Source: a bacterium (Candidatus Blackallbacteria) CG13_big_fil_rev_8_21_14_2_50_49_14
GTDB lineage: Bacteria > Cyanobacteriota > Sericytochromatia > UBA7694
Assembly: GCA_002783405.1 (NCBI GenBank)
Contig: PFGG01000035.1
Coordinates: 194,940-258,939, forward strand
Direction of reading: 5' to 3'
DNA: 64,000 bases
Part shown: positions 3,243 to 50,215 of the stretch, one piece after another
How the letters are laid out: each line of letters starts with the position of its first letter
Numbering within the stretch: the stretch's first letter is position 1
Notes under the pieces: model-generated
Told to the model about the DNA's origin: nothing
Database searches by the model: none
Seen by the model: only the letters and a program-made list of their open reading frames with translations
Program-made: the position numbers and the translations under genes

Positions 3243-4175
3243 TTAGGCTGGCAAACAATTCACAAACATCATAACAAAGAGCAGGCACAGGTAGAAAATT
3301 GAAAAGAAGAAAAGTTGGTAAGCCCGTTTGGAAGTGACGGGTTGAAAAATAAATTTGATTGTCAAACCCAAATAGGTAATTCCCAACAAAGCCGCAACCC
3401 CCATATAAATAGGCCCGGTCACGCCCAACCAAAACAGTGAAAGACTGGCAGGCAAAAGCAAAACCGTATAGATCAGCATTTGTCGTTTGGTTACGGCTTC
3501 ACCTTTGACCACAGGCAACATGGGAATATTCACACGGCGGTATTCTTCACTGCGAATCAGGGCAATCGCCCAAAAATGAGGCGGTTGCCAAAGATACATA
3601 ATAATAAACAAAGCAAGGGCTGTGGTATCAATGCGACCCGTTACGGCGGTTACCCCTAAAACCGTAGGCAGCGCCCCTGAAATCCCTCCAATAGAGGTAC
3701 AAAGCGGGCTCCAACGCTTAAGCCAAATGGTATAAATCACGACATAAAAGAAATTGGTAAACAAGGCCAATGCGGCCGTCAACATATTCACAGTCAGACT
3801 TAAAAAGACAAATGAACTGAGCCCCAAAAAAGTCCCCAACCAGAGAGCCACCTGAGGAGACAGCCGTCCTGTGGGCAAAGGTCGGTTGCGCGTACGCTGC
3901 ATATGTTGATCAATTTCACGGTCAATAAAATTATTAAAAGCACTGCTGGAGCCCGATGCCATCCCAACCCCCAAAAGGGTTGAAATGACCAGTAAAAGTG
4001 GAGGAACACCTCTGACTGCCAGCCACATTCCAGTAAAAGTAGTAATCAAAACTAAAAAAGTAATCCGTGGTTTGGTTAAATCATAGGCATCGCGCAGCCA
4101 TTGACGGATTTGAGTTTGCGGTGGAGCCAAAGATGCTGGCTCTGACGATAAGGTCATATTTCCCTGTTCAAGCAT
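3243..4175 (-). CDS. ctaB: Protoheme IX farnesyltransferase (heme O synthase)
   Basis: 310-aa polytopic UbiA-family protein. It lies between Sco and the cytochrome oxidase operon, the position typical for CtaB/CyoE. Confidence 0.8.
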   Translation of the reverse strand: MLEQGNMTLSSEPASLAPPQTQIRQWLRDAYDLTKPRITFLVLITTFTGMWLAVRGVPPLLLVISTLLGVGMASGSSSAFNNFIDREIDQHMQRTRNRPLPTGRLSPQVALWLGTFLGLSSFVFLSLTVNMLTAALALFTNFFYVVIYTIWLKRWSPLCTSIGGISGALPTVLGVTAVTGRIDTTALALFIIMYLWQPPHFWAIALIRSEEYRRVNIPMLPVVKGEAVTKRQMLIYTVLLLPASLSLFWLGVTGPIYMGVAALLGITYLGLTIKFIFQPVTSKRAYQLFFFSIFYLCLLFVMMFVNCLPA

Positions 4176-7568: not shown

Positions 7569-8183
7569 ATGTCAAGCACAGCTATTGCTCAGGAAGAGCA
7601 CGCTCAAGACACTTCTCCCCAAGCCAGAAGACGTGTTTTGATGGCAGATATGCCCAAAGGGCGATTGGCCATGTGGTGGCTCATCGCCTCTGAAGTCGTT
7701 ATCTTTGGAGGCTTAATTGCCACCTATATCATGTTCCGTTTACGCCATCCCGAATGGGGACACGCAGCCGCCCATACTTCCACACCCATGGGAGCATTGA
7801 ATACATTTTTTCTCCTGACCAGTAGTTTGACCATTGTATTGGCCCATGATGCCGCCAATCGCAAAGACCTCAAAGGAGCCGTGCGTAATATGCTGATTAC
7901 GCTTGGTTTTGGTTTGGGATTTTTGGTGGTCAAGTCTATTGAATACAGTACCGAAATCAGTCATGGCTTTACTCTCACGGCAGAACTTTTTTGGAGCTTT
8001 TATTTCCTAATGACAGGTTTACACGCACTCCACGTGATAGCAGGCATGACCACCATCTTCATTGTTATGCTGGGTGTGCGCAAAGGAAAAAACCTACAGA
8101 GAGTCGAGTTTGCTGGGCTCTATTGGCACTTGGTTGACTTGGTCTGGATTTTGCTTTTCCCTTTACTCTATATCGCGCATTAA
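7569..8183 (+). CDS. Cytochrome c oxidase subunit III
   Basis: GAGGAG Shine-Dalgarno 9 nt upstream of the ATG at 7569; the ORF-track start at 7524 overlaps ctaD. 5-TM protein ending ...GLYWHLVDLVWILLFPLLY, which is the subunit III signature. Confidence 0.85.
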   Translation: MSSTAIAQEEHAQDTSPQARRRVLMADMPKGRLAMWWLIASEVVIFGGLIATYIMFRLRHPEWGHAAAHTSTPMGALNTFFLLTSSLTIVLAHDAANRKDLKGAVRNMLITLGFGLGFLVVKSIEYSTEISHGFTLTAELFWSFYFLMTGLHALHVIAGMTTIFIVMLGVRKGKNLQRVEFAGLYWHLVDLVWILLFPLLYIAH

Positions 8184-44230: not shown

Positions 44231-45609
44231 GCTTCAGCCAAAGCAGAGACAACGCCATATTTTCCTGCTTTATATACAATAGGTTTATTTACATTTTTCT
44301 CAACATAATATTCAAATTCACCCATAAATAATTCTGTTCCGGAATGAATTCTTTTCAATGACTTGATCTCAGAGAGGGCCTGTTCTGTTTGGAATTTTTT
44401 TAAGGTTTCAAGCCGAGCTTGCAAACTGAGCAATTGAAACTCAAACCTTGGAATTCTGCCTCTTAAATGTCTGAGCATAATATCATCGGGGCCCTTTTTT
44501 TCTTTTAAAACCAATTCAGAAATTTGATTGCGTATTTCGGCTAAATGTTGATCTATTGCTTTGATTTGACGCAAAATTAAATTTATTTTGTCTTCCAGAT
44601 AGGGATTCAAACCCACTGCCAATTGAGTGTTTAAACCTGCAGACCCAATCCACGACGCCTGGACAACACCTGTCGCCCTTGTGATCCCACCAATAATATT
44701 TTCGGCATGAACAGCATCCAATGCAACAGAATAGGATTGAATTAAATCATGCGCATAAATCGAATAATCAGCCTCTAAGGTACAATGCTCAGCAAAACCA
44801 GTTCTAATACTTTTAGAAGCTTTTAATATAGCAGTGTCTTTTCCTTTTATTCCTTGTCCAATCAATATATGTCCGCCGGAAATGAGAACAGCAGCATCCA
44901 CCGTGCCTTTGACAATAATATCCCCTTCAGCCCCTAAACGAATCAAATCCTTTACCGACCCATTCACAGCCACAATTCCCTGATAATAATGGGATTCCGT
45001 GATATCCCGCTCTAAAACAAAAATTGGCTGCATCACAATCGAATGTGGCAAATTGAAAACAGGATAGCCTTCCACGGTAGAAACCAATAGGTTTTTGTCT
45101 TCTTCAGAGACTTTTACATTTTTTAATTTGGGAAAAGATTTATCATACCCGCTCAAACCAGAAACCAGCTCCCCCCGAATGCTCATACCTGGTGAACCCA
45201 AGGTGGGTGGATATTTTCTTAAAAGAGGGGTATTTGCGGAAATGAGAATCTTTTTAAATTCGGGCCAAAACCAAGTTTCTTTATGCCCATCATAGACTTC
45301 AAGTAGTTTTTCAAAATTATTTTCTGATGCATCAAGCAGTTTTTCAAAATAGACATCCTGCCCTCTCTCTGGGTAAACCCCCAAAGCGATCAACTCCTGC
45401 TTGGCCGTTTTTTCTTGAATAATTTTTGCTATCGTTTTCTCCTGAATTCCATAGACAATTCCGTTTTGCTTTAAAAAACTGATAATCGATTTATGACTCA
45501 GTTCATATCCTTCTTCTCCAAAGCCCTGTAAAGGCTGAATCGAAAAAAAAGCTTCCATCAAATAACGCCCAGAACTTCGGGGAAAGGTGAGATGAAACTG
45601 ATACTTCAT
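44227..45609 (-). CDS. DUF342 (FapA-like) protein
   Basis: ATGA overlap with the nth stop at the ATG 45609; the ORF-track GTG at 45657 would overlap nth by 52 nt. A Gly/Val/Ile-rich beta-helix-like repeat region (VNGSVKD...IVKGTVDAAVLISGGHILIGQGIKG) is followed by a coiled coil, as in DUF342 proteins. Confidence 0.5.
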   Translation of the reverse strand: MKYQFHLTFPRSSGRYLMEAFFSIQPLQGFGEEGYELSHKSIISFLKQNGIVYGIQEKTIAKIIQEKTAKQELIALGVYPERGQDVYFEKLLDASENNFEKLLEVYDGHKETWFWPEFKKILISANTPLLRKYPPTLGSPGMSIRGELVSGLSGYDKSFPKLKNVKVSEEDKNLLVSTVEGYPVFNLPHSIVMQPIFVLERDITESHYYQGIVAVNGSVKDLIRLGAEGDIIVKGTVDAAVLISGGHILIGQGIKGKDTAILKASKSIRTGFAEHCTLEADYSIYAHDLIQSYSVALDAVHAENIIGGITRATGVVQASWIGSAGLNTQLAVGLNPYLEDKINLILRQIKAIDQHLAEIRNQISELVLKEKKGPDDIMLRHLRGRIPRFEFQLLSLQARLETLKKFQTEQALSEIKSLKRIHSGTELFMGEFEYYVEKNVNKPIVYKAGKYGVVSALAEA

Positions 45610-46232
45610 GAAGCTTGTTCTGAAGGGCAATACTGCCTGAGACAGCACTGTTTGCACAGCGGCTTTCTCGCCTTACAAACGGCACGGCCATGGGAAATCA
45701 TTAAGTGGGGAAAAAGAACCCAGTCCTGCTCAGGAACCTGTGCCATTAAATCTTTTTCAATTTTTTCTGGCTGTGTCTGCTGAGTAAGTCCTAAACGTTG
45801 AGATAACCGCGAAACATGGGTATCCACAACCACGCCCTCAGCATATCCAAAGGCATTTCCCATTATTACATTGGCTGTTTTTCGACCCACTCCACTCAAA
45901 GCAGTCAAAGCTTTCATCTGGTTAGGCACAAGACCTTGATGCAGTTCAAGCAACTGCTGTGCTGAGTGCTTAATCGAAGCTGCTTTGTTACGAAAAAAGC
46001 CTGTAGAGCGCACATCCTGTTCCAACTCGGCCAGATCTGCATCTGCAAAGGCTTGAGGTGATCTGTACTTTTTAAATAAGCTCTGGGTCACTTGATTGAC
46101 CCGTTCATCCGTACATTGAGCCGACAGAATCGTAGCCACCATCAATTCATGGGGACTTGAAAAAAACAAAGCACAATGGGCATCCGGATAAGCCTGTTTT
46201 AATTGCTCAAGAATAAGCTCAATCGGCTGCAT
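45606..46232 (-). CDS. nth: Endonuclease III (DNA glycosylase/AP lyase)
   Basis: HhH-GPD fold with LVPNQMKALTALSGVGRKTANVI, and the C-terminal [4Fe-4S] cluster CKARKPLCKQCCLRQYC. Confidence 0.85.
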   Translation of the reverse strand: MQPIELILEQLKQAYPDAHCALFFSSPHELMVATILSAQCTDERVNQVTQSLFKKYRSPQAFADADLAELEQDVRSTGFFRNKAASIKHSAQQLLELHQGLVPNQMKALTALSGVGRKTANVIMGNAFGYAEGVVVDTHVSRLSQRLGLTQQTQPEKIEKDLMAQVPEQDWVLFPHLMISHGRAVCKARKPLCKQCCLRQYCPSEQAS

Positions 46233-46302: not shown

Positions 46303-47112
46303 TTACTTCTTCTGAGTCGCATTCCCAGCATAAGGATTCAGCATTTTTTCTACTTCTTCCTCTTTCACCTGGCGGGTGCGCTCAAGCAGTTCAAGTTGTG
46401 TAAGGGCCTTTGTATCGGCTTTCTTACTGCGTGTTTCAGCATTCACCAAAATAATATTGATACGTCGATTGCGTGCTCTGTTTTCATCATTGATATTCGG
46501 CATCAAAGGACGTGTATCGCCGTAAGCTGAAGCCGAAATTTTAGTTGGATTAAAACCGACTTCGCTCAAGAAAAACCGAACAACTTCGGTGGCGCGCAAA
46601 GCAGAGAGTTCCCAATTTGAGGGAATTTCAGGCGTATGAATTTGCTGATCATCGGTATGACCTTCAACGATCACCTGGGCGTCGGTATCCTTACAAAACT
46701 GTGCAACTTCTTTTAAAAGTCTGACGACACGCGGTTTAATCACCGTTTCACCAGGATCAAAGAATACACTGTCGACAATTGAAATAATCGTGCCACGCTC
46801 ATCTGTAGAAAAACTGACTGATTTATCAATTCCGAAGGCTTTTGCTGCTTCTTCAATGGCTTCACTGGCTGCAGTAATCACTGAACGCGTAGGTGAAGAA
46901 AGAATTGAAATACCCACAGCACTGGCCTGAACAGATTCTTTATTCAATGCACGGCGCAAGGATTCTGAAATTGCTAAGAGTTTATCTTTAGAAACTTCAG
47001 AGGAAGCAAACATTACCACGAAGAAAATCATCAAAAGAGAGATCAAATCGGCGTAAGTCGTCAACCATCGTTCTGTATTGACAGGGGCTTCTTCTTTTTT
47101 TCTACGAGCCAT
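46303..47112 (-). CDS. motB: Flagellar motor stator protein MotB (OmpA-like C-terminal domain)
   Basis: N-terminal WLTTYADLISLLMIFFVVMFA plug/TM region. C-terminal OmpA-type peptidoglycan-binding motif (...SNWELSALRATEVVRFF). Confidence 0.8.
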   Translation of the reverse strand: MARRKKEEAPVNTERWLTTYADLISLLMIFFVVMFASSEVSKDKLLAISESLRRALNKESVQASAVGISILSSPTRSVITAASEAIEEAAKAFGIDKSVSFSTDERGTIISIVDSVFFDPGETVIKPRVVRLLKEVAQFCKDTDAQVIVEGHTDDQQIHTPEIPSNWELSALRATEVVRFFLSEVGFNPTKISASAYGDTRPLMPNINDENRARNRRINIILVNAETRSKKADTKALTQLELLERTRQVKEEEVEKMLNPYAGNATQKK

Positions 47113-48229: not shown

Positions 48230-48565
48230 TCAGACTTCATCATGTATTTCCTCATTCAGGTGCGGATACTCAGAAACTGCTTCCGGATCGGCTTCATCCA
48301 CAGGCAAAAGGCCATCAGCTTCAATCCAGTGGTAAGAGCGTTCTGAGTCTGGTATACGCACATGCTTCTTTACAGGCCAGTCACTGAATACAATTCGCTT
48401 GTAATCGATCACCTTACGCCAGACTTCATCAACACTTTCCCGGACAACCATTCGTTTTTTGTCAATGGTAAGAGTTACAACCGTTTCGGGTGTTGCCTCA
48501 AACATTTCTATCAATTCGGCATTGACAATAAACTTACGACCGTCCAAACGGGTTAATTTTATCAT
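48230..48565 (-). CDS. flbD: Flagellar protein FlbD
   Basis: The internal ATG at 48565 begins MIKLTRLDGRKFIVNAELIEMFEATPETVVTLTIDKKRMVVRESVDEVWRKVIDYKRI, matching the FlbD family. The ORF-track start at 48790 would overlap the divergent gene. The gene order flbD-motA-motB is as in Firmicutes, Spirochaetes and Thermotogae. Confidence 0.7.
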   Translation of the reverse strand: MIKLTRLDGRKFIVNAELIEMFEATPETVVTLTIDKKRMVVRESVDEVWRKVIDYKRIVFSDWPVKKHVRIPDSERSYHWIEADGLLPVDEADPEAVSEYPHLNEEIHDEV

Positions 48566-48584
48566 ATAATTAACCAGATTTCCG

Positions 48585-48603
48585 CTCCGATGTAAAATAC
48601 ATC
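48585..48603. promoter_or_regulatory. Perfect palindrome CCGATGTA-aaa-TACATCGG in the flbD / 48669 divergent intergenic region
   Basis: 8-bp arms with a 3-nt spacer, centred between the two divergent start codons. This is a candidate operator. Confidence 0.3.
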
Positions 48604-48668
48604 GGTCACAGTTTTTGGATTTGCCTATATCATTCAGTTCAATTTTTTTTTCATTGTACAATAAAAGT

Positions 48669-49730
48669 ATGAATGATCCAAACGCGCCAGAAGACCAACA
48701 ACCAAATCGTAGATTGTCCTCAAGGGCAACTAATTTTTTAATGAGTTCAATGGGCTCCTCTGTAGGCCAAGTCAGCCAAACAGGTCCCATTCATGAGGAG
48801 CAACCGCCTTCTGTCGAAACATCGGAAGCTCAAGGTCAAGCCCCTCTTGCTCATGACAATACCGAAAGCAAACGAAAAACGGGCGTGATCAGTTCAACCA
48901 TTTACCCGGCACAACGTCAAGGTAACCAAGAACAGGCCCCGGAAAATCAGACGGCTAGTAAAACCAATCAATTAAACCAGACTAAAACAGCTGGGCCGAA
49001 ACAAAGTAAAAAACTGACACCGCTAGACAAAGCGAAACGTCAAGAAGAAAAAATTGACAATCTGGCGGAGCGCATTACCAATGTTCTCAAACAAATTTCC
49101 GAATTTAAAACAGGCATGTTAGATTCAAATTTAGCACCCAGCCAAAGATTACAATGGGTTACTGAAAAATACCCGGGTTTTTCAAAAATATTTGGCGTAT
49201 TATTAACACAATTAGAACCTGTTATTTTACTCATGCAGCGCATCAATCAAAAACTCCTTGAAAAAAACCTGATCCAAGGAAAGAGAAGACTCAGCCATAA
49301 CGCGCACGATCGGGTCGAACAGGATTCTGCAGATCATCCTCCTCCTCCCCCTCCCAAGGTCTCGTTCCTCGAACTTGCAGAGAAAAACATTGTTTTTTGT
49401 GATAACCGCAAGCGTCCACTCTATTCTATTGAAACCATGCGGGGAAAACATGGCTATACAGCCAGCGAGGAAGTACTCGTACCTATGATTATGGAAAATA
49501 TTATCCAGGCCTTTCAGGAAGTTGCGCCTAAGGCCAAAGCAATACCTACCCCACAAAGCGGCTTTTATGCGGGAAAGGCAATGGATCAAGTTATGTACAA
49601 TATTTCAGAAGAAGAAATTATGTTGTTTTTAAATTACGTACAAAAATTCCCGCGTGGTTATGTGGGTAAAAATTTTCGAATCACTGAGTCTTTTGCAGGC
49701 TGGGTGGTAAGTGGCACGCCGGATGATTAA
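48669..49730 (+). CDS. Hypothetical protein (354 aa) with a disordered Gln/Ser/Thr-rich N-terminal third, a poly-Pro tract and a structured C-terminal domain
   Basis: ATG at 48669, only 6 nt after a TACAAT -10-like hexamer (possibly leaderless). Its stop overlaps the start of the CheY-like gene (TAAATG). No motif recognised. Confidence 0.5.
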   Translation: MNDPNAPEDQQPNRRLSSRATNFLMSSMGSSVGQVSQTGPIHEEQPPSVETSEAQGQAPLAHDNTESKRKTGVISSTIYPAQRQGNQEQAPENQTASKTNQLNQTKTAGPKQSKKLTPLDKAKRQEEKIDNLAERITNVLKQISEFKTGMLDSNLAPSQRLQWVTEKYPGFSKIFGVLLTQLEPVILLMQRINQKLLEKNLIQGKRRLSHNAHDRVEQDSADHPPPPPPKVSFLELAEKNIVFCDNRKRPLYSIETMRGKHGYTASEEVLVPMIMENIIQAFQEVAPKAKAIPTPQSGFYAGKAMDQVMYNISEEEIMLFLNYVQKFPRGYVGKNFRITESFAGWVVSGTPDD

Positions 49731-50096
49731 ATGAAACGCATACTTGTGATTGAAGACTCTGCTTTTATTAGATATCTGCTTCAAGAAAATCTGCTCGAGC
49801 TTCAAATGGAAATTATCGGCGAAAGCAGTACCTCTGAAGAGGGTTTTGAACTTTTTCAAAAATACAAACCCGATGTCACCTTAATAGACTACAGTCTTTC
49901 CACTGGTTCGGGTCTGGAATTAGCTGAGAAAATTTTAAAAGAAAATATGTATGCCCGCCTTATTTTAATGCTTCCATACCGCATGTTTTATCAGGCACAA
50001 GAATTAATTGCCATGGGGATTCGGGCGGTTGTCAGCAAACCTTTTTATCCTGAAAAACTCCAAAGCACTTTAATCGAAGCCATAGAAGACTTTTGA
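49731..50096 (+). CDS. Single-domain response regulator (CheY-like receiver)
   Basis: 121 aa. Acidic pocket (IEDS...), the phospho-acceptor Asp in VTLIDYSL, a conserved T/S (TGSG) and K (VSKPF). Confidence 0.75.
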   Translation: MKRILVIEDSAFIRYLLQENLLELQMEIIGESSTSEEGFELFQKYKPDVTLIDYSLSTGSGLELAEKILKENMYARLILMLPYRMFYQAQELIAMGIRAVVSKPFYPEKLQSTLIEAIEDF

Positions 50097-50104
50097 GCAA
50101 AAAA

Positions 50105-50137
50105 AAGCTGTCGATAAAGTTTATCAACAGCTTTTTA
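50105..50137. terminator. Bidirectional rho-independent terminator between the response regulator gene and tRNA-Ala
   Basis: AAAAAGCTGTCGATAAA g TTTATCAACAGCTTTTT is a near-perfect 16-bp palindrome (one G-U position) flanked by A- and T-runs. Confidence 0.5.
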
Positions 50138-50142
50138 ACGGA

Positions 50143-50215
50143 TGGAGGTAAGCGGATTCGAACCGCTGACCCCTTGCATGCCATGCAAGTGCTCTACCAG
50201 CTGAGCTATACCCCC
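50143..50215 (-). tRNA. tRNA-Ala (anticodon GGC)
   Basis: The reverse complement folds as a 73-nt cloverleaf. The acceptor GGGGGTA/TACCTCC carries the G3:U70 Ala identity pair. Anticodon loop ATGGCAT, T-loop TTCGAAT. Confidence 0.85.

Follow-up and report, generated by a model that had tools for sequence, protein, structure and literature searches.

A receiver gene and an undescribed partner gene conserved beside the flbD-type stator operons of Sericytochromatia

The window analyzed here is a stretch of 64,000 nucleotides (nt) of contig PFGG01000035.1, from a genome of uncultured Candidatus Blackallbacteria, class Sericytochromatia. It harbors a two-gene operon that diverges from the flagellar stator operon flbD-motA-motB. 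The first gene, called UNK below, encodes an unknown protein of 353 amino acids (aa), and the second, REC, encodes a single-domain receiver. The operon is conserved in related genomes, together with a conserved symmetric DNA element at the start of UNK. The module is real, conserved and unannotated, and it is a variant, at a motility locus, on the theme of a single-domain receiver with a partner. We propose tentatively, with a confidence somewhat short of even, that the locus is a clade-specific operon in which a receiver-controlled adaptor is linked to the FlbD-type stator. Transcription would be leaderless and bidirectional, the receiver would bind the adaptor, and the motor would be the target. 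It is the gene order, and only the gene order, that points to control of stator expression or motor function, as suggested in a first-pass annotation of this DNA. A literature search found nothing on the UNK family or on a receiver beside flbD-motAB.

Results and discussion

Gene order in related genomes

UNK and REC lie on the plus strand and flbD, motA and motB on the minus strand, which is the divergent arrangement originally described; the spacer between them measures 103 bp (48566-48668), not 104 bp. Counting the window, REC-UNK stands back-to-back with flbD-motA-motB in 12 of 12 flbD-type stator loci (the other 11 are L001-L009, L037 and L044), and the expected synteny with mot genes in relatives holds. 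REC follows UNK wherever the contig continues (11 loci and the fragment L043), as expected for a conserved unit. The loci L001-L009, from nine species-level genomes with UNK 49-73% identical, have the order fapA-nth-motB-motA-flbD followed by the divergent UNK-REC. L037, a metagenome contig, represents a tenth relative, and L043 a further UNK-REC junction; the metagenome scan added only 7 loci. In L044 the core arrangement is kept with MotA 64% and UNK (P0048) 43% identical, while the outer flanks have changed, to a glycosyl hydrolase gene at one end and a protease gene plus a second motB at the other. The right flank also varies among L005-L009.

The pair is absent beside three flbD-less Sericytochromatia stator operons (MotA 56%, 50% and 44% identical). 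Among the 15 stator loci examined, it occurs exclusively with flbD-type operons. Other signalling genes were seen at the flbD-less loci: a 387-aa STAS-domain protein is encoded directly upstream of motA in L046 (L046:4795-7101), and a CheX-type gene is found ~4 kb downstream in L047 (L047:11794-12255). MotA, MotB and FlbD evolve far more slowly than UNK and REC, as expected if the pair is an accessory module; identities range over 43-73% for UNK and 39-73% for REC, against 64-93% for MotA and 73-90% for MotB.

The operon is followed by a hairpin that folds better than any of 200 shuffles and that a simple terminator scan missed (Table 1). It is probably a bidirectional intrinsic terminator closing the UNK-REC operon, and its position between REC and the convergent tRNA-Ala gene marks UNK-REC as a two-gene unit.

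The conserved element over the UNK start

Outside the invariant block TTCATTGTACAATAAA the spacer is poorly conserved. Across this block and its continuation no synonymous change was found in the in-frame codons. Inside it lies the palindrome ATTGTACAAT, which is its own reverse complement and therefore presents TACAAT on both strands, so that firing in both directions is possible. The window and the 10 closer mot-linked loci each have a single copy of the 15-mer TCATTGTACAATAAA, which is missing from all 33 other loci compared; L044 keeps only the core, as GTTGTACAAT-N6-ATG. The shorter sequence TTGTACAA is found once in the 64-kb window, and 13 of its 20 exact copies in the 572 kb compared fall within the twelve flbD-UNK spacers, 1.9 kb in total. 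Two exact and two one-mismatch copies are present in the L044 spacer.

That spacer (3323-3703, 381 nt) also contains several ATTGTAC/GTACAAT heptamers and a 24-bp near-palindrome, ATTGTACTAGTTAACTAATACAAT (~3478-3512), symmetric at 22 of 24 positions, whose core resembles the idealised E. coli TrpR operator. An exact TTGTACAA was also seen in the short motB-nth spacer of L008 (L008:4559), and may serve there as another promoter of this type.

TACAAT lies 6 nt from the ATG of UNK, as noted in the first-pass annotation (48657-48662, followed by AAAAGT and the ATG). All orthologues examined keep the TACAAT-N6-ATG geometry, and a group of kinase-linked paralogues, described below, has GGTTACAAT-N6-ATG. 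Among 54 window genes, UNK alone combines this geometry with the absence of a Shine-Dalgarno-like sequence. The conservation in orthologues and kinase-linked paralogues lends comparative support to the earlier idea of a leaderless mRNA, which is most likely what the UNK-REC operon yields. The predicted start sites, 48669 (+) and 48646 (-), are 23 bp apart. Bacterial bidirectional promoters are defined, in PMC10268837, by start sites 7-25 bp apart, with 18 bp the commonest distance; the predicted spacing falls within this range. Judging from its symmetry, the ATTGTACAAT element may drive both operons, or it may be an operator for a dimeric regulator.

The UNK protein

The UNK open reading frame (ORF) encodes 353 aa, not the 354 first reported. 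As stated before, the protein has no recognisable domain: searches of Pfam, NCBIfam, PHROGs and PADLOC gave no family match. From its N-terminus, it can be divided into a disordered part, a helical region, a linker rich in proline and a C-terminal domain that is conserved. In the AlphaFold model (m7d4bef07033e), built with 93 sequences, the N-terminal ~115 residues have a predicted local distance difference test score (pLDDT) of ~45-55, consistent with the disorder that had been proposed for the N-terminal third. Two motifs lie in this part. Phe23 and Leu24 of SSRATNFL are retained in at least 90% of the family members, in long and short forms alike; the mot-linked branch and the kinase-linked paralogues both conserve TGVISSTIYPAQR. 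The poly-proline tract noted earlier is present as PPPPPP at residues 224-229, but it is not a conserved motif and the linker varies among homologues.

The start at 48669 is backed by homologues beginning MN(D/E)PN. UNK is 100% identical to NCBI COW36_00620, in which the call starts at Met25 and omits the conserved SSRATNFL. No Pfam or NCBIfam model, for CheZ, CheX, CheC, Hpt or any other family, matched at E <= 0.1, so that UNK has no match to a known CheY kinase or phosphatase family. Neither a PilZ, YcgR or glycosyltransferase domain (Pfam, NCBIfam) nor a PADLOC defence-system model was matched, and a sequence profile search of the PDB gave chance-level matches only (best E = 0.098, to BAG-type helices). 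Two further candidates were rejected. The N-terminal motif is not a twin-arginine signal, as the distance from RR to FL does not fit and the motif is not followed by a hydrophobic stretch. Residues 169-190 do not qualify as a membrane helix, with a Kyte-Doolittle mean of ~1.2 (hand count, 19-residue window), below the usual 1.6; the segment has Glu and Gln in its middle and is modelled by AlphaFold as a helix beside two others.

The C-terminal domain and its wider family

The C-terminal domain, of ~120 aa, is the conserved core of UNK, with ~50 positions at least 90% conserved. Residues 225-353 modelled alone gave a pLDDT of 90.2 and a predicted template modelling score (pTM) of 0.85. A Foldseek search of the PDB with the domain model found nothing better than E = 0.41. 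Despite a confident model, the domain has no described family and no solved structural relative.

A word-indexed search returned 94 UNK homologues, all from Sericytochromatia or unnamed metagenomes, and a profile search of 1.8 billion representatives returned 288 proteins at E <= 0.001. Some proteins (P0121, P0096) carry two to five tandem copies of the domain, and P0112 was seen to contain long Q/G/Y/D/N-rich repeats; their composition suggests that these three proteins are multivalent scaffolds. TPR-CHAT and TPR-caspase proteins of the Bacteroidota type, ~1,600 aa long, also carry the domain near the N-terminus, and an nSTAND1 NTPase has it at the C-terminus. Both CHAT-type proteins read (L023, P0150) have signal-peptide-like N-termini, and UNK has none. 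No Pfam model covers the domain in the tandem, TPR-CHAT, TPR-caspase or nSTAND1 proteins.

The family is expanded in Sericytochromatia, with several paralogues per genome, e.g. three in GCA_051715345. One group of paralogues, 43-45% identical to UNK, is always divergent from a histidine kinase that binds cyclic nucleotide monophosphates (cNMP), and such a kinase could be the input to the receiver. In 5 of these 6 loci the paralogue was seen to be convergent with an unknown gene of ~110 aa. The short-form family members have no neighbours in common. A distant member in L022 lies directly upstream of a canonical cheY-type gene.

The receiver and its junction with UNK

REC is a stand-alone CheY-like receiver, as annotated at first, matching PF00072 over residues 4-113 (56.8 bits, cut-off 30.2). 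The stop of UNK had been said to overlap the start of REC; TAA (49728-49730) and ATG (49731-49733) in fact abut, in the same frame. In relatives the junction is a one-base overlap (TAATG or TGATG) or a gap of 9-20 nt. In L008, inspection by eye of ~8094-8110 showed no in-frame ATG, GTG or TTG just past the UNK stop, and its receiver may use an unusual start.

Asp53 and Lys103, equivalent to CheY Asp57 and Lys109, are invariant in the window, 6 orthologues and E. coli CheY, and are also present in L044. A proline, Pro82, occupies the CheY Thr87 position at the end of strand 4 in the window, the 6 aligned orthologues and L044. The acidic pair (CheY Asp12-Asp13) is Glu8-Asp9 in the window and Glu-Pro in L006, L007 and L009. 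REC may depart from the usual mode of signalling or serve chiefly as a binding partner. It does not qualify as a CheY equivalog: with NF041367, its top CheY model in NCBIfam, it scored 52.3 bits, and the cut-off is 200. No che gene was found among the window genes scanned. Close relatives of REC, 6 by word-indexed search, were found in this clade only.

Table 1. Features of the UNK-REC locus and of related loci (positions in the window unless a locus is named)
Feature	Position	Strand	Remarks
nth, ORF read as endonuclease III	45606-46232	-	From translation alone; between motB and fapA
motB, MotB_plug and OmpA domains	46303-47112	-	PF13677, E = 2.5e-19; PF00691, E = 5.6e-17
motA, 359 aa	47130-48209	-	PF01618, E = 9.6e-28
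flbD, 111 aa	48230-48565	-	PF06289, E = 3.8e-23
Second perfect inverted repeat, GGTTAATT-N9-AATTAACC	48551-48575		Brackets flbD start codon
Palindrome flagged earlier, CCGATGTAaaaTACATCGG	48587-48605	.	Perfect in this genome only
Partly conserved block, GTAAAATRCANNGRTCACA	48592-48610	.	27-45 nt upstream of flbD start
Invariant block, TTCATTGTACAATAAA	48650-48665	.	Runs on into ATGAATGA.CCAAA; identical in window and 10 relatives
10-bp palindrome, ATTGTACAAT, inside TTCATTGTACAATAAA	48653-48662	.	TACAAT on both strands
UNK, 353-aa product	48669-49730	+	ORF, stop included; 94 homologues
UNK residues 1-117			Low AlphaFold confidence, consistent with disorder
UNK motif SSRATNFL, residues 17-24	48717-48740	+	Alignments A1 and A2
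UNK motif TGVISSTIYPAQR, residues 71-83	48879-48917	+	Alignment A1; within disordered region
UNK helical region, residues 118-198	49020-49262	+	Three predicted helices; pLDDT ~78-91
UNK linker, residues 199-232			Low AlphaFold confidence
PPPPPP tract, residues 224-229	49338-49355	+	In linker; variable among homologues
C-terminal domain, residues 231-353	49359-49727	+	Ends ...KNFRITESFAGWVVSGTPDD; no annotated family
UNK residues 233-350			Confidently modelled domain (AlphaFold)
REC, 121-aa single-domain receiver	49731-50096	+	Response_reg, E = 3e-15
Hairpin, 15 pairs around one mismatch	50102-50136	.	A-run and T-run flanks; -14.6 kcal/mol, z = -4.36
tRNA-Ala(GGC)	50143-50215	-	Convergent with receiver gene
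Kinase-linked paralogue loci	L010-L013, L019, L024 (e.g. L024:6661-9077)		427-aa cNMP_binding-HisKA-HATPase kinase; 56-nt spacer
CHAT/caspase/STAND-linked copies of the domain	L023:6626-11398; P0150-P0152, P0155, P0163, P0180, P0188

Other features of the spacer

The first-pass annotation had singled out the palindrome CCGATGTAaaaTACATCGG. A perfect copy is present at 48587-48605, but it is near chance and not conserved, so that it is not a supported feature and ATTGTACAAT is preferred instead. Perfect inverted repeats with arms of 8 bp and loops of 0-10 nt number 23 in the window, compared with ~17.6 in Markov simulations, a density of ~0.03 per 103 bp. Of its 8 pairs the palindrome keeps 6 in the closest relatives, and it is lost in more distant ones, which retain just GTAAAATRCA..GRTCACA of this region. 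RNAalifold over 8 orthologues gave no consensus hairpin at this site, and paralogues lack the palindrome. A role as operator or RNA hairpin was rejected: the sequence folds well here (-16.1 kcal/mol, z = -3.1), but it is degraded in relatives.

The exact pattern of GTAAAATRCANNGRTCACA is found in the window and in the loci of 6 relatives, and this block is probably part of the promoter or 5' leader of flbD. Three other candidates were discarded. A sigma-28 type promoter (TAAA-N15-GCCGATAA) over CCGAT fails because CCGAT is lost in L006-L009; for a CRP-type site, the flbD strand has a conserved TGTGA but no conserved second half-site. The repeat GGTTAATT-N9-AATTAACC contains a G-U wobble in the nearest relatives and is not in register in distant ones.

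The stator operon and its surroundings

The genes flbD, motA and motB all have profile matches and run in the same direction, as a stator operon; fapA is also on the minus strand, beyond the nth ORF. The order motB-nth-fapA was seen to be retained in 10 related loci. The listed fapA ORF (GTG at 45657) shares 52 nt with the nth ORF, so that the fapA start is probably further downstream. The other window genes scanned are housekeeping genes (ROK kinase, glycosyltransferase, spermidine synthase, PhoU/PHO4, Lpt), and two more ORFs were read as TrkA/TrkH by translation alone.

MotA residues ~255-359 form a C-terminal extension of ~100 aa that ends in a Lys/Arg-rich tail. This long form of MotA (335-411 aa, 43-91% identity) is found across Sericytochromatia; most other MotA matches, ~257-282 aa long, align with only some two-thirds of the query. 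In FlbD, the Pfam domain (59 positions) corresponds to residues 1-59 only, and beyond it lies an acidic C-terminal extension of ~50 aa that is conserved in relatives. A FlbD-MotA fusion protein was found elsewhere (P0353); such a fusion suggests that FlbD works on the stator.

Proposed function and alternatives

In the mechanism that we propose, UNK would be a cytoplasmic protein of the adaptor type, composed of a linear motif, a disordered spacer, helices, a proline linker and the C-terminal domain, and REC would be a divergent single-domain receiver translationally coupled to it. Both would be made from a leaderless mRNA specified by the TACAAT 6 nt before the ATG, with no Shine-Dalgarno sequence, and ATTGTACAAT would fire both ways, tying the expression of the pair to that of the flbD-motA-motB operon. 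REC would bind the UNK adaptor, and the pair would act on the FlbD-type stator, e.g. on FlbD or on the Sericytochromatia-specific MotA tail, tuning its engagement or torque. The input could be an orphan kinase, or plain binding where the acidic pocket has degenerated.

Several points weigh against this proposal. The protein contacts that it invokes are all hypothetical. REC has no Thr/Ser switch residue and three orthologues also lack the metal-binding Asp, losses with which REC may not signal by phosphorylation. Genomes have at least 3-4 paralogues of UNK, in housekeeping or unrelated contexts, which argues for the C-terminal domain as a general-purpose module. The L029/L030 member, placed inside the mot-linked branch by a rough neighbour-joining tree, has neither mot genes nor a receiver adjoining. 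The phyletic test comprises only 12 positive and 3 negative loci, and the conserved block in 10 loci also includes the DNA-repair gene nth, so that gene order within the clade is by itself no proof of a common function. Finally, UNK might instead start at a TTG at 48654, which some gene callers choose.

The main rival explanation is that UNK-REC is a two-component output module with a non-motility target, standing beside flbD-motAB by an order inherited within a narrow lineage. The many unrelated contexts of other family members would fit such a history, as would nth, which is likewise locked into the conserved block, the housekeeping nature of the remaining window genes, and L029/L030, a close member without mot genes or receiver. 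It is harder to reconcile with L044, where the arrangement survives between changed flanks with proteins 43-64% identical, with the different right flanks of L005-L009, with the absence of the pair from the three flbD-less stator operons examined, and with an invariant, symmetric, promoter-like element common to the pair and the stator operon. We regard inherited order as somewhat unlikely.

Three other readings have little support. UNK could be a diverged phosphatase of the CheZ, CheX or CheC type or an HPt-like phosphotransfer protein, since it lies directly upstream of a receiver, is coupled to it, and has a helical region of ~80 residues like those of CheZ and HPt proteins. However, no CheZ, CheX, CheC or Hpt model matched at E <= 0.1, PDB profile matches were at chance level (E >= 0.098), and in no alignment column of the helical region does His reach 50% of the sequences, which leaves no candidate phosphotransfer His there; moreover, the best-conserved part is the C-terminal domain, which is found also in proteins without a nearby receiver. 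The chance of this reading seems slim. About as improbable is membership of a conflict or programmed-cell-death family, in which the C-terminal domain would be an adaptor comparable to those of CHAT, caspase and STAND NTPase proteins, and its place beside the stator genes would be incidental. The domain does occur at the N-terminal end of ~1,600-aa TPR-CHAT and TPR-caspase proteins and at the C-terminus of an nSTAND1 NTPase, but no PADLOC model matches, no protease, NTPase or other effector gene lies beside the Sericytochromatia members examined, and the CHAT-type proteins read have signal-peptide-like N-termini that UNK lacks. A DNA-binding regulator acting on palindromes of the spacer, with the flagged palindrome as its operator, is barely plausible: palindromic DNA does lie between the divergent operons and the L044 spacer has repeated TTGTACAA-type sites, but neither sequence nor fold searches found a helix-turn-helix or other DNA-binding domain, the flagged palindrome is unconserved and not above chance, and paralogues have no such palindrome.

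A bolder version of the proposed adaptor-receiver function is, in our opinion, unlikely. The undescribed fold and the receiver with a proline switch would then form a new class of stator regulator for the FlbD motors of Sericytochromatia, co-expressed with the stator through a symmetric, leaderless, bidirectional promoter, and the domain would be reused in other phyla as an adaptor of CHAT, caspase and STAND proteins.

Significance

Sericytochromatia are flagellated, non-photosynthetic relatives of cyanobacteria, and to our knowledge nothing is known about motor control in this class. The pair offers motor biology a concrete candidate regulator, a receiver and an adaptor tied to an flbD-type stator with a lineage-specific MotA tail. 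For protein families, the locus adds a domain absent from current family and structure libraries; as it recurs in CHAT, caspase and STAND proteins, any function established at this locus would carry over to hundreds of proteins that lack annotation. For transcription, the invariant ATTGTACAAT offers a clean case, outside model organisms, in which to test leaderless and bidirectional initiation. Should the motor link prove wrong, what is left is a lineage-specific hypothetical family of the ordinary kind, with a receiver for a partner.

Comparison with known systems

Some single-domain response regulators act through a partner, such as CheY with FliM or CheZ, DivK and CpdR. Like them, REC is a stand-alone protein of ~120 aa that keeps the Asp and Lys, is encoded with a non-enzymatic partner, and has motor genes adjoining. 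It differs in its weak match to receiver models, its proline switch, the degenerate acidic pair of some orthologues and the absence of che genes from the window, and its partner UNK comes from no described family.

The brakes and clutches of stator and rotor, YcgR, MotI/DgrA and FlgZ, which are PilZ proteins, and EpsE, tune the assembled motor and are often encoded near motility genes. The role proposed for UNK-REC would be of the same kind. However, UNK has no PilZ, YcgR or glycosyltransferase domain, and the proposed input is a receiver instead of cyclic di-GMP.

FlbD/SwrD (PF06289), whose gene accompanies motAB in spirochaetes and Firmicutes, is a small protein that reportedly increases the power of the Bacillus subtilis motor. 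The pair is found only beside flbD-led stator operons (12 of 12); FlbD is its neighbour, and carries here a C-terminal extension of ~50 aa.

Adaptor domains of TPR-CHAT, TPR-caspase and STAND NTPase proteins have reportedly been treated by Aravind and colleagues. The C-terminal domain of UNK resembles them in recurring at the ends of such large proteins, whereas it matches no Pfam model, and the Sericytochromatia proteins have neither an effector domain nor such neighbours.

Symmetric bidirectional promoters of bacteria were described by Warman et al. 2021, as summarised in PMC10268837. There 18 bp is the commonest spacing; here the hexamers have only two bases in common, and the start sites are predicted ones. 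The UNK-flbD spacer is nonetheless like those promoters in placing a hexamer of the -10 type on both strands between divergent genes, with a predicted spacing of 23 bp.

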